64,000 bases of DNA from an uncultured virus (IMG/VR IMGVR_UViG_2061766007_000763). Its lineage: Duplodnaviria > Heunggongvirae > Uroviricota > Caudoviricetes. This document shows, piece after piece, positions 12,164 through 15,851 of the stretch. The position numbers were made by a program, and so were the translations under genes. The number at the start of each line of letters is the position of its first letter. The first letter of the stretch is position 1. Location of the stretch: IMG/VR virus record IMGVR_UViG_2061766007_000763; one strand, given 5' to 3'. The notes beneath the pieces were generated by a model. The model did no database searches. It saw nothing but the letters and a program-made list of their open reading frames with translations, and had not been told where the DNA came from.

Positions 12164-12472
12164 TTAGGGATTTAGCCATCCGTGAGGATGGCTAAATCTT
12201 TCTATTTCCTTTTTGCATATATAGCACATAAAGACCAAGCAGAATTGGAAGCACAGAGACAGGTAAGACATGAAAAAGGATACAGCCAGAGATTCTATCA
12301 ACCGGCCAGTATTGCGTAATGAATAGACAAAAACTATACAAAAAGTGAAACGCACAGGATGGCTGATGACCAAGAATTGCTTTCCCAGCTTCTTCTCAAG
12401 CCATTTAACCAATCCTGCGTCGTTTACCGCTATTGCAATAAACATCAAAGAGAAAAGTACCGTAGCCTGCAT
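12164..12472 (-). CDS. Small membrane protein
   Basis: Three hydrophobic segments; TATATTTG element at 12481-12488 on the minus strand. Confidence 0.55.
   Translation of the reverse strand: MQATVLFSLMFIAIAVNDAGLVKWLEKKLGKQFLVISHPVRFTFCIVFVYSLRNTGRLIESLAVSFFMSYLSLCFQFCLVFMCYICKKEIERFSHPHGWLNP
12169..12198. terminator. Bidirectional intrinsic terminator
   Basis: GATTTAGCCATCC-GTGA-GGATGGCTAAATC perfect hairpin between convergent genes. Confidence 0.85.
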
Positions 12473-12860: not shown

Positions 12861-12899
12861 TTCATTTTATCTTTTTTAAATTATTACTATATTTGTGTC

Positions 12900-12992
12900 A
12901 CGAGGATAGATAGGAGTAGCTACCTATTGACAAGGGTATCAATGCGCCCTTCCTCGTTTCTCAATCGCATTGGTCTTTTAAAGCATTGATAT
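12900..12992 (+). ncRNA. Structured cis-leader RNA of HNH gene 1 (three-way junction plus pseudoknot)
   Basis: Starts 5 nt after TATATTTG (12888-12895); P1 ACGAGGA/TCCTCGT, P2 ATAGG/CCTAT, P3 AGGGT/GCCCT; covaries with the copy at 15106. Confidence 0.75.
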
Positions 12993-13826
12993 ATGAATCA
13001 AGAAGAATTTTGGAAGCCTATAAAGGGCTTTGAGGGGTTTTATGAAGTAAGCAACTTGGGTAGAATAAAATCCTTGGAGCGTATCACCAATCATCCTAAA
13101 GGTAAAAGGCTTGTAAGGGAGTATATATTAAAGCCGTACATAAGTCGCCGTGGTTATTACGAAGTAACCTTATGCAGATTNNNNNNNNNNNNNNNNNNNN
13201 NNNNNNNNNNNNNNNAAATTGTATTAGAGACGTTTGTCCCAAATGTCCAAAATAAACCTTGCATAGACCATATCAATACAAATAAGCTTGACAATCGCCT
13301 ATCAAATCTTCATTGGGTTACTCACAAAGAAAATAGCAATAATCCTATTACCTTGGCAAAAATCAAGAGAGCTCGTAGCGATAAGAATTATATCTCCAAA
13401 ATGCTTGAGTCAAGGCGAGCAAATGGGAAGAAATATGCTCCCATTTATGTTTATCAATACGATAAGAATGGGACTTTTATTAGTAGATATGATAGTCTTT
13501 CAGATGCTTATAGAAAGACGGGCACTACTATAAAAAGCATAACATTAGCACTTGACAATTTTCATTTAACAGGAGGTGGCTATCTTTGGAGTACCACATA
13601 TCACAAACAAGTAACTTATACGCCTAATCCCATTCACAATGCTATTGCTATTTGTGCTTATGATGGCATGGGCAATAAGATAGGAGAATGGAAATCTAAA
13701 AGCGATGCCATTAAGTCGCAGCATATACATCGTCGCACTTTAGAAAAGTGTCTTGCTATGGGCTGTGCATATAAGGACGTTGTCTATAAATATGATAAAA
13801 TCAAAGCATCATATCCCAATGAATAG
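12993..13826 (+). mobile_element. Free-standing NUMOD4-HNH homing endonuclease with NUMOD1-like repeats
   Basis: EFWKPIKGFEGFYEVSNLGRIKS (NUMOD4); CIDHINTNKLDNRLSNLHWVT.KEN (HNH); VYQYDKNG.FI..YDSL.DA (NUMOD1); antisense to the flanking operon. Confidence 0.92.
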
Positions 13827-14217
13827 CAATCCCCTTTGCACTACAATCAGCAAGGTATCTGCAAAGCACAATGCCATCGTAGCCATCCGGGTCGCATATC
13901 ACATCCTTGATATACTTAGCCATGTGTTCCTCATCCTCAATGGAACTGCCCCAATAATCTGCCTTTACCATAGCCGCAAGGTATAACGCATCATACATGT
14001 CGTTTGTGTCAATCTCAACCTTGTACTTGGTAAGCATAGCCTTAACTTCTTCCATTGTAGGCGGCACAACTTTTATCATTCTCTCCGTTTGTGCGTCTTT
14101 TTTCATCATCTTACTTGTGGCGAACTCAAACAACTTTTTGTTGAAATGCCATCCGTAATATGAAAGATATTCCTGCATGTCCTCGGGAATATTATAGTTT
14201 GTAAGTGGTGTGTGCAT
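13801..14217 (-). CDS. Conserved Bacteroidales phage hypothetical protein (DUF7841-like)
   Basis: YLSYYGWHFNKKL; AMVKADYWGSSIEDE.H.A.YIKDVI.DPDGYDG. Confidence 0.8.
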   Translation of the reverse strand: MHTPLTNYNIPEDMQEYLSYYGWHFNKKLFEFATSKMMKKDAQTERMIKVVPPTMEEVKAMLTKYKVEIDTNDMYDALYLAAMVKADYWGSSIEDEEHMAKYIKDVICDPDGYDGIVLCRYLADCSAKGIAIHWDMML

Positions 14218-14281
14218 AATTCTCTATATTTTGTTTGTTAATAATACAAAGGGGCGGGCTCACGCCCAAACCCCTTCAAAA

Positions 14282-14497
14282 TTACATGTAACGACCGCGA
14301 GAGTCGCGAGAACGACGATACATATCCTCCTCGTCTGCATCCTCCCAGCCGTGACGATAGCCCTGACGGTAGCCGTGGTCGTAGTCATCACGGTATCTGC
14401 CGTCATAGCGGTATCCGCCGCGCATATTGCGGCGCATCTCTGAGCGCATCTGCTCTTGTGAGCCTTCGCTCCCTTTGTCAACAAATATCCAACTCAT
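14282..14497 (-). CDS. Small Arg/Asp/Tyr/Gly-rich low-complexity protein
   Basis: GYRYDGRYRDDYDHGYRQGYRHGW...RRSRDSRGRYM. Confidence 0.75.
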   Translation of the reverse strand: MSWIFVDKGSEGSQEQMRSEMRRNMRGGYRYDGRYRDDYDHGYRQGYRHGWEDADEEDMYRRSRDSRGRYM

Positions 14498-14511
14498 TGT
14501 AGTAAGGGTAT

Positions 14512-15060
14512 TTAGGGTTTCGCGGTCTTGGCCGGTCCGCCATTTAGCGTCCTCAAGATATTAAGCATCTCCGCGCTCTGCTGTTCAAGAGTCGCCAGAC
14601 GTTTGTCTTGAGCATTACTCTTTTCCTGCAGGTCGATTATAGACTGAGCCCGTAGCTTTTCCTCTTTGTAGTTGGGATTGAGGCTTTCGAGCATTTTGTC
14701 TCCTTCGGTCAGTATCATCTTGTGATAGTCAACCTCGGTCAAGGCTTTCTTGGAGGCTTGTATCATGCTATCTACAGCCTGAATCATAGCCTCTCTGCTG
14801 CCGGTAAACGTCTCGTTGCCGCGAGCGGCTATCTCCACGTTGACCGGTACATCCGGGATAACCCTGTCATTGCCGTTGACTGTCACTGTGATACTGGTTA
14901 CATGCTGCATACCCATGCCGTTATAGACTCCGGGTGTCTGCTGCTGATACTTAGGTTGCGGAGCGGTTTTCTCTTTAACCACACCTTGCTCAAGAATGGG
15001 CTTATCGCCCTTTCTCAGTATATAAAATGGCGAACCTGCGCCAAGACTTTGAAAATCCAT
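14512..15060 (-). CDS. Hypothetical protein with a C-terminal coiled coil
   Basis: FQSL..GSPFYIL.K N-terminus; long helical C-terminus. Confidence 0.8.
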   Translation of the reverse strand: MDFQSLGAGSPFYILRKGDKPILEQGVVKEKTAPQPKYQQQTPGVYNGMGMQHVTSITVTVNGNDRVIPDVPVNVEIAARGNETFTGSREAMIQAVDSMIQASKKALTEVDYHKMILTEGDKMLESLNPNYKEEKLRAQSIIDLQEKSNAQDKRLATLEQQSAEMLNILRTLNGGPAKTAKP

Positions 15061-15105
15061 TGTTAATCACTTTTGTTCGTTAATACTTTTTTGTACCTTT
15101 GCATT

Positions 15106-15201
15106 AAGGGATAGTTCAGTTTGGCCACTGAATGACAAGAGTATTTCTGAGGCTCTTCCCTTTTTCAAAAATCTCAGAATTATCATAAACTCAGAAAATC
15201 T
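15106..15201 (+). ncRNA. Structured cis-leader RNA of HNH gene 2 (same fold as 12900)
   Basis: Starts 5 nt after TACCTTTG (15094-15101); P1 AAGGGA/TCCCTT, P2 TTCAGT/ACTGAA, P3 AGAGT/GCTCT; same TAG and TGACA junctions. Confidence 0.75.
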
Positions 15202-15819
15202 ATGACAAACGAAGAATTTATTGAGTCTGTTAGGCTCGAAGGAGAAGAGTGGAGAGATGTAGTCGGATGGGAAGGCTACTATATGGTGTCATCTTATGGT
15301 AGAATTTTGTCGTTGGGTAGGTTTGTTAAGTATCATACTTACACAAAGATGATAGAACCTTGCATAAAGCAACAACATAGAGGGAGAAACGGATATTTTT
15401 CTGTCACTCTCAAAAGAGACGGGGAGAAAAAATGTATATCCGTACACCGTTTAGTTGCGATAGCATTTGTTTCTAACCCAAACAATTATCCTTGTATAGA
15501 CCATATAAATGATAACAAAATAGACAACCGTGTATTCAACCTACAATGGTGTACTCACAAGTTTAACAACTCTAAAGGACATCATCGTATTGCCGAATCT
15601 TTATCACAAAAAGGGAAGATACTTACATCAATTAGAAAACCAATAGTTCAGTTAAATACTAATGGAGACCTTGTGCGTATTTTTCCATCCATGACAGATG
15701 CAGACCTTAACGGTTTCCAACATTCGGCAATCCATAGGGTTATCCACAACAAGTTAAAAACTCACAGAGGATTCAAATGGATGTATCTATCCGACTACGA
15801 GAATCTTGTCAATCAGTAA
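15202..15819 (+). mobile_element. Free-standing NUMOD4-HNH homing endonuclease with NUMOD1-like tail
   Basis: EEWRDVVGWEGYYMVSSYGRI; VHRLVAIAFV.NP.NYPCIDHINDNKIDNR.FNLQWCT; KPIVQLN.NG.LV..F.S; antisense insertion. Confidence 0.92.
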
Positions 15820-15851
15820 GTCAAAGAACTTTCGCCTTATCATAAGGCCGT

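Follow-up and report, generated by a model that had tools for sequence, protein, structure and literature searches.

The closest catalogued relatives of the leader RNAs described here belong to the int-alpA family (Rfam RF02996; typed Gene; sRNA), which we take to come from a survey of 224 motifs and to be without known function, and whose integrase/alpA gene context we presume from its name. Among phage RNAs of related logic, the C4 antisense RNA of P1/P7 controls an antirepressor operon. The P4 CI RNA pairs with two sites, terminating transcription, and the short IsrK RNA of Gifsy-1 turns on translation of the longer transcript that reads through from it (both from the available text of PMC4825925). 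At the homing endonuclease genes of T-even phages (I-TevI/II/III, segB, and Aeh1 mobE), hairpins in the leader RNA limit translation, and the genes are off until late (PMC2988022, in the part available). Natural regulation by RNA homodimerization is rarely described, according to the available portion of PMC7357161. Here we analyzed a 64,000-nt stretch of DNA (hereafter, the window) from an uncultured Caudoviricetes virus (IMG/VR record IMGVR_UViG_2061766007_000763), which is phage DNA carrying terminase, tape measure protein, and DnaB genes, and in which two HNH endonuclease genes are each preceded by a leader RNA with a predicted three-way junction of stems P1, P2, and P3. The P2 loop is self-complementary, and the P3 loop is complementary to two downstream boxes (box 1 and box 2), the second lying just before the start codon. 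The leader is real and well supported as a structure by comparative sequence data, whereas its mechanism is what we infer: with a probability of roughly 0.45 for this exact wiring, each cassette would be a mobile promoter–leader–nuclease unit with an RNA-only, dimer-dependent translational repressor.

As in the C4/CI RNAs (RF01695), a leader-derived structured RNA here can pair with two sites of its own transcript. A preliminary description of the window had drawn this comparison, which survives as one of logic alone: no Rfam C4 match was found for the window or the tested homologous loci, and both targets lie downstream of the RNA, in contrast to seqA and seqC of CI, which flank the CI RNA. 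A self-pairing loop, present here, is not described for C4, CI, or IsrK in the available text of PMC4825925. The T-even hairpins are comparable in that a leader RNA structure at a free-standing homing endonuclease gene would limit translation here too. In the T-even case, however, a stem buries the ribosome-binding site and an internal late promoter bypasses it, whereas here the start region is outside the conserved stems and would be contacted by a loop, the target occurs twice, and the entire structure is preceded by the promoter-like box. RNA-guided HNH systems (HEARO, RAGATH-18 type) were also considered and rejected, in view of the lack of an Rfam match, the NUMOD4–HNH_3 architecture of the proteins, and the presence of the leader before unrelated proteins. 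No account of a two-box, dimer-coupled mechanism was found in literature searches that did not use the name int-alpA, and the available texts of PMC8040213 and PMC2864571 hold nothing matching the leader RNA.

In both window leaders, the predicted three-way junction consists of P1 (6–7 bp), a UA junction, P2, a GACA junction, and a 5-bp P3 that stacks onto P1 directly. Covariance model R1 detects the two copies alone in the window, the next best match scoring 11.1 bits. The family was collected from viral, genome, and metagenome collections with search patterns in which the junction bases alone were fixed and no loop or box bases were specified. A first round gave 250 matches, 51 of which failed the stem or length filter; a second parser with a stem-only filter gave, among the matches listed, 320 matches in 319 of 413 sequences with 191 unique cores, and the variants that it overlooks (L409, L411, and L412) were read by eye. 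In a gap-free alignment of the 57 members with a 20-nt P2 and a 19-nt P3 hairpin, 96.5% of the cells pair and 13 of the 20 pairs change on both sides, a result matched by none of 500 shuffles, although the shuffles ignore relatedness and the filter itself required stems. At an unfiltered stem position, G–U (84) far exceeds A–C (7), which argues that the element acts as the plus-strand RNA. A TAnnTTTG box, which we take to be the Bacteroidota −7 promoter consensus, ends 7–11 nt upstream of the UA junction in 118 of the 191 unique cores, and therefore the RNA probably starts at P1, directly behind the promoter-like box in most members. When 37 candidates per genome were scored with model R1, 150 genomes from the order of G002 yielded nothing further, and 150 from the class of G004 yielded a single weak hit (26.5 bits) without recognizable anatomy. 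Contigs from the RNA runs X1–X4, which derive from relatives with small word shares and carry no information on transcript starts, ends, or strand, do not enter the evidence on expression or habitat.

The preliminary description had proposed that the P3 loop of each leader possesses two private complementary boxes, the second next to the HNH start codon, and that loop and boxes covary between the copies. Both loops, all four boxes, and both ATG codons are indeed present in the window at the positions given there. The predicted energies of the loop:box duplexes are −10.9 and −11.8 kcal/mol in copy 1 and −9.7 and −10.7 kcal/mol in copy 2, as compared with −0.1 to −0.5 kcal/mol for the four cross-copy duplexes. 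Covariation across homologues, which had been suggested as a check, was borne out: at least two complementary boxes occur within the next ~55 nt for 123 of 150 distinct P3 loops, as opposed to 2.96% when loops and leaders were mismatched (21,050 pairs). For an initial, smaller collection, the corresponding figures were 76 of 107 loops and 1.86% of 10,704 mismatched pairs, and none of 106 loops had two boxes in its own +60 to +112 region. The placement of box 2 at the initiation region likewise extends to the family, as it ends 0–7 nt upstream of the start codon in 56 of the 69 elements with a start found. The idea that each element has its own specificity code agrees with the 100 distinct codes among the shared P3 loop cores and with the different loops in all 12 same-contig pairs (window pair included). 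The geometry is regular as well, with the boxes spaced in register by 14–21 nt (107/126 elements), a linker of at least 5 nt (122/126), and the 3′ side of the loop as the pairing face (101/126 for box 1), typically leaving two 5′ bases free. Genes that are 91–97% identical over their first codons carry entirely different loop/box sets. In examples of members with a Shine-Dalgarno (SD)-like leader site, the P3 loop is an anti-SD sequence; in the window-type variant box 2 is not an SD site, so that ~100 private codes exist. The non-SD members thus show the pairing to be a free code and not simple anti-SD recognition. Altogether, RNA pairing at the initiation region has strong comparative support, and translational control by the leader is highly probable.

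A U-rich tract follows P1 (at least four U within 8 nt in 157 of the 191 unique cores), the longest run being mostly 3–4. Together with the terminator-like score of P3 in copy 1 and the precedent of the CI RNA (PMC4825925, available text), this tract could point to transcriptional control, in which the loop:box pairing determines whether transcription stops early in the U-rich linker or whether Rho loads, as in P4 CI. The short U-runs, and the association of box 2 with the start codon and with any SD-like site, make such control quite improbable compared with an action on translation. Separately, three loci (L158, L180, and L198) have an identical P3 loop without the two downstream boxes and with a long U-run after P1, and are candidates for stand-alone, trans-only small RNAs.

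The P2 loop provides the second component of the proposed mechanism. Of 85 distinct P2 interiors, 79 contain a 4-base palindrome, of nine types in all (mean of 39.9 and maximum of 56 in 2,000 shuffles), and in 76 of the 85 it is located in a fixed register 0.5–1.5 nt off the hairpin axis. In the 57-row alignment, the adjacent columns 19:20 are Watson-Crick in every row (GC, 35; AU, 22) and columns 18:21 in 56. Adjacent bases cannot pair within a single strand, and the 19:20 pair is therefore possible only between two molecules. The palindrome differs between alleles with up to 98.6% identity, and 7 of 27 multi-member clusters hold eight extra palindrome types, none of them non-palindromic. A downstream complement of the palindrome occurs in 33 of 182 cases (34.2 in shuffled sequences), indicating no partner in cis beyond chance. 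Predicted homodimers of the two window RNAs are favored (−9.2 and −9.9 kcal/mol), with the heterodimer at 0.0. The hexamer is preceded by unpaired 5′ purines (most commonly AG, GG, and AAG), an arrangement similar to the six-base loop palindrome with unpaired 5′ purines in the dimerization initiation site (DIS) of HIV-1, described in section 2.1 of PMC7357161 (available portion). The same palindrome-type covariation marks an intermolecular kiss observed by cryo-EM in L9.3 of the OLE RNA (PMC12286853, as available). The leader thus shares with DIS-type loops a palindrome with adjacent-base covariation, by analogy and not by homology; dimerization serves packaging or assembly in DIS, OLE, and Moloney murine leukemia virus, whereas here it would act in concert with a loop directed at the start region. 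On this comparative basis, dimerization of the leader RNA is likely. In two cases, palindrome and loop vary separately: L305 and L318, on one contig, have P3 loops one base apart and different palindromes, and L357 and L404 share a palindrome and have different loops.

The preliminary description had left the choice between a two-state switch in cis and an antisense RNA in trans. Its loop pairing stands, but it had overlooked the palindromic P2 loop, which points to homodimers and thereby merges the two options into one mechanism. In a purely cis-acting switch or kinetic throttle, the loop would bind box 1 in the on state and box 2 in the off state, in alternation, to give a low fixed output, and a dimer or a protein would shift the balance or stabilize the RNA. 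Both boxes use the same loop face with similar strength (mean, −10.8 kcal/mol for box 1 and −10.1 kcal/mol for box 2) and are reachable in cis, and a short RNA is unnecessary. Such a switch alone, however, leaves unexplained the palindrome, which covaries at adjacent bases and switches among near-identical alleles, as well as the ~100 private codes, and we consider it possible but rather unlikely.

We therefore favor the dimer-dependent repressor, in which one box per dimer subunit is the simplest reading because a self-pairing loop is combined with two equivalent boxes. In a lone transcript, the P3 loop would pair in cis with box 1 as an H-type pseudoknot, box 1 being assigned this role because it emerges before box 2 during transcription, is in most cases the stronger partner (63 elements versus 33 for box 2), and is reachable. 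With box 1 occupied, box 2 and the start region would be free, and the gene would be translated. As copies accumulate, either as short or decay-trimmed ~58-nt junction RNAs or as other full transcripts, a second copy would dock through P2–P2 kissing, and its free P3 loop would cover box 2 and block ribosome loading. The outcome would be a burst of expression on entering a new cell followed by self-silencing, a course that would suit toxic nucleases, integrases, and antirepressors. Only a copy that agrees in the palindrome as well as in the loop code would repress, which would make the silencing element-specific, like an immunity group. In all six relatives, the genes flanking both promoter–leader–HNH units are adjacent, showing these units to be optional insertions.

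Several observations weigh against this mechanism. The direction of the effect (repression) and the identity of the box bound in cis are deduced rather than observed, and the shortness of the U-runs behind P1 gives little support to a short RNA made by termination. By the rule used, 27 of the 150 loops have fewer than two boxes. Linker length does not correlate with P3 length (rho, −0.015; p, 0.87), so that the pairing of box 1 in cis is possible. The dimer energies given above are those of extended duplexes, as ViennaRNA cannot model kissing loops, and AU-only palindromes are weak as bare hexamers (approximately −0.4 to +0.2 kcal/mol). Six of the 85 P2 interiors are without a palindrome, and the palindromes differ in 10 of 12 same-contig pairs, which equals the chance expectation (probability of identity, 0.2). 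The sign of the control could also be reversed, with a copy in trans activating as in IsrK, or with a domain-swapped dimer freeing box 2, such that the monomer is off and the dimer moves the loop to box 1; expression would then need high RNA levels, e.g., late in infection. IsrK itself (PMC4825925) and the late expression of the T-even endonucleases (PMC2988022) are precedents in the available texts, and box 2 is the slightly stronger partner in both window copies. Nevertheless, a docking partner brings an extra box-binding loop and would more simply add occlusion, and box 1 is transcribed first and predominates in strength across the family, which renders activation improbable.

Returning to the dimer-dependent repressor, a broader and more tentative proposal is that int-alpA-type leaders are protein-free, concentration-sensing translational repressors. 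The homodimer would resemble a dimeric repressor protein bound at an operator with two sites, dimerizing through one loop and holding the two boxes with the other, and the two codes, each able to mutate independently (~9 palindromes combined with ~100 loops), would provide a combinatorial immunity among phage selfish genes, integrases, antirepressors, and replication genes. It offers a testable mechanism for a catalogued RNA family, the function of which we take to be unknown. If true, the loop/box pairs would be ready-made orthogonal translation switches for Bacteroides.

The kinship with int-alpA is evident through intermediates. The window copies do not match RF02996 at the gathering threshold, nor at E up to 10 on each copy alone, and Rfam finds chance matches only in the window. 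Among 32 homologous loci searched in E-value mode, nine match RF02996 at the motif and one exceeds the cut-off (L358: 44.6 bits against a cut-off of 35.8, and 38.8 bits with model R1); L295 and L350 reach 34.3 bits with RF02996. All nine also match model R1 (33.8–59.9 bits), and L447 matches both models, although a further 20 loci gave no int-alpA match at gathering. Both groups have the topology P1–UA–P2–GA.A–P3–P1 and a U-run, and in both the P3 loop has a complementary box, which is present in the Rfam consensus. They differ in P2 (5–7 bp with a ~8-nt loop in the window type versus 3–4 bp in int-alpA), in J3/1 (absent versus 2 nt in the Rfam consensus), and in the Bacteroidota-type promoter, the non-SD box 2, and the free code (~100 cores) of the window type, as opposed to the SD-bound code of canonical int-alpA. 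Among 151 genomes from the class of G006, 12 yielded a total of 19 canonical int-alpA matches; 15 of these matches have two boxes, and box 2 falls in the purine-rich site upstream of the start. Their P2 loops carry a 4-mer palindrome in nine cases, GACG in seven, and neither in three. Only one of the 19 scores well with model R1 (24.4 bits), and Pfam matched none of 14 proteins behind them. Because intermediates match both models and because topology, boxes, and self-complementary P2 loop are shared, the window leaders are, by sequence comparison, a divergent long-P2 int-alpA variant, which intermediates connect to the family although the scores of the window copies do not qualify them as members. 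The element is accordingly not categorically new, its family being already catalogued, and the family is extended to Bacteroidota phages, where it is mostly missed by Rfam. The name int-alpA is absent from the main text of PMC5737381, the 224-motif survey presumed above to be its source, as far as available. In the available text of PMC10690425, DNAVirus_8377 is an anonymous 105-nt candidate located before HNH_3/NUMOD4/AP2/GIY-YIG genes with Bacteroidetes hosts, and may be a window-type RNA. The seven canonical loci with the GACG P2 loop are L436, L437, L439, L440, L448, L453, and L454; a GACG loop forms a two-base-pair kiss in the leaders of murine leukemia and sarcoma viruses (PMC7357161, available portion).

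The genes behind the window-type family were annotated with Pfam, by which 107 downstream proteins comprised 35 NUMOD4/HNH, 5 GIY-YIG, 10 DUF4379/DUF723, 4 integrases, 2 Bro-N, 2 DUF6291, 1 terminase, 4 others, and 44 without a match; PHROGs assigned 7 HNH and 4 DnaD-like proteins among 15 of these 44. The preliminary description had tied the leader to HNH start codons, which is correct for the window, both genes being NUMOD4–HNH, but too narrow for the family, in which unrelated proteins are headed as well. According to these annotations, the genes headed by the leader encode not only homing endonucleases but also integrases, antirepressors, and replication proteins, mainly in Bacteroidota phages. 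Three of the carriers are cultured phages, for which cultured hosts exist: Polaribacter phage P12002L (leader before HNH), Parabacteroides phage PD491P1 (before an HmuI-like endonuclease), and Bacteroides phage C3_41T2LP. The last of these carries three copies, one each in front of genes for an endonuclease, an HTH protein, and an AntA/AntB antirepressor, the antirepressor being a parallel to C4. The prevalence of nuclease genes downstream in most annotated cases, and the inverted repeat that P2 and its loop form in DNA, would be expected if the element acted as DNA (an operator palindrome with direct repeats to which the encoded protein binds), or if the RNA were a guide or scaffold of the nuclease. 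The excess of G–U over A–C and the off-axis position of the palindrome speak against this view, as do the occurrence of seven palindrome types and many loops within one HNH clade, of one loop code before unrelated N-termini, and of the leader before integrases, Bro-N, and replication proteins; we regard it as very unlikely. A near-identical leader precedes an HNH gene in L130 and, with a weakened second box, the terminase large subunit in L011, where it is possibly a remnant after nuclease loss; in L396 a near-identical leader heads a protein with a similar N-terminus.

Table 1. Positions of the two promoter–leader–endonuclease cassettes and their parts in the window
Feature	Position	Strand	Basis
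−7 promoter-like box (TAnnTTTG), cassette 1	12888..12895	+	Sequence; same box recurs across family cores
Three-way-junction RNA, copy 1	12900..12957	+	Predicted fold; model R1, 64.6 bits; family stem covariation
Arms of copy 1	P1 12900-06/12951-57; UA; P2 12909-14/12923-28; GACA; P3 12933-37/12946-50	+	
Self-complementary hexamer in P2 loop, copy 1 (central AGCT)	12917..12922	+	
P3 code loop, copy 1	12938..12945	+	
Box 1, copy 1 (one G-U)	12967..12974	+	
Box 2, copy 1 (end 2 nt upstream of ATG)	12983..12990	+	
Endonuclease gene 1, free-standing NUMOD4-HNH_3-NUMOD1	12993..13826	+	Pfam; PHROGs phrog_59
−7 promoter-like box, cassette 2	15094..15101	+	Sequence
Three-way-junction RNA, copy 2	15106..15162	+	Predicted fold; model R1, 59.8 bits
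Arms of copy 2	P1 15106-11/15157-62; P2 15114-19/15128-33; P3 15138-42/15152-56	+	
Self-complementary hexamer in P2 loop, copy 2 (central GGCC)	15122..15127	+	
P3 code loop, copy 2	15143..15151	+	
Box 1, copy 2	15173..15179	+	
Box 2, copy 2 (end 4 nt upstream of ATG)	15190..15197	+	
Endonuclease gene 2, free-standing NUMOD4-HNH, 205 aa	15202..15819	+	Pfam; PHROGs
Insertion cassette 2 (promoter, leader, HNH gene), approximate extent	15088..15851	+	Junction read in L413, L415

The coordinates of both cassettes are summarized in Table 1. HNH gene 1 has 277 codons with a short run of N inside. A weak hairpin is predicted in copy 1 between the linker and box 2 (12961–12990, plus strand) and could compete with the loop pairing. 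Terminator-like hairpins are present on the plus strand at 12166–12201, between convergent genes, and at 15834–15848, at the end of HNH gene 2. Beside HNH gene 1, which overlaps its 3′ end by 26 nt, is a DUF7841 gene (13801–14217, minus strand) with 33–38% identity to its counterpart in L413–L415, as compared with 65–98% for the neighboring genes; this divergence suggests that the allele was replaced when the endonuclease was gained, as would be anticipated close to a homing target.

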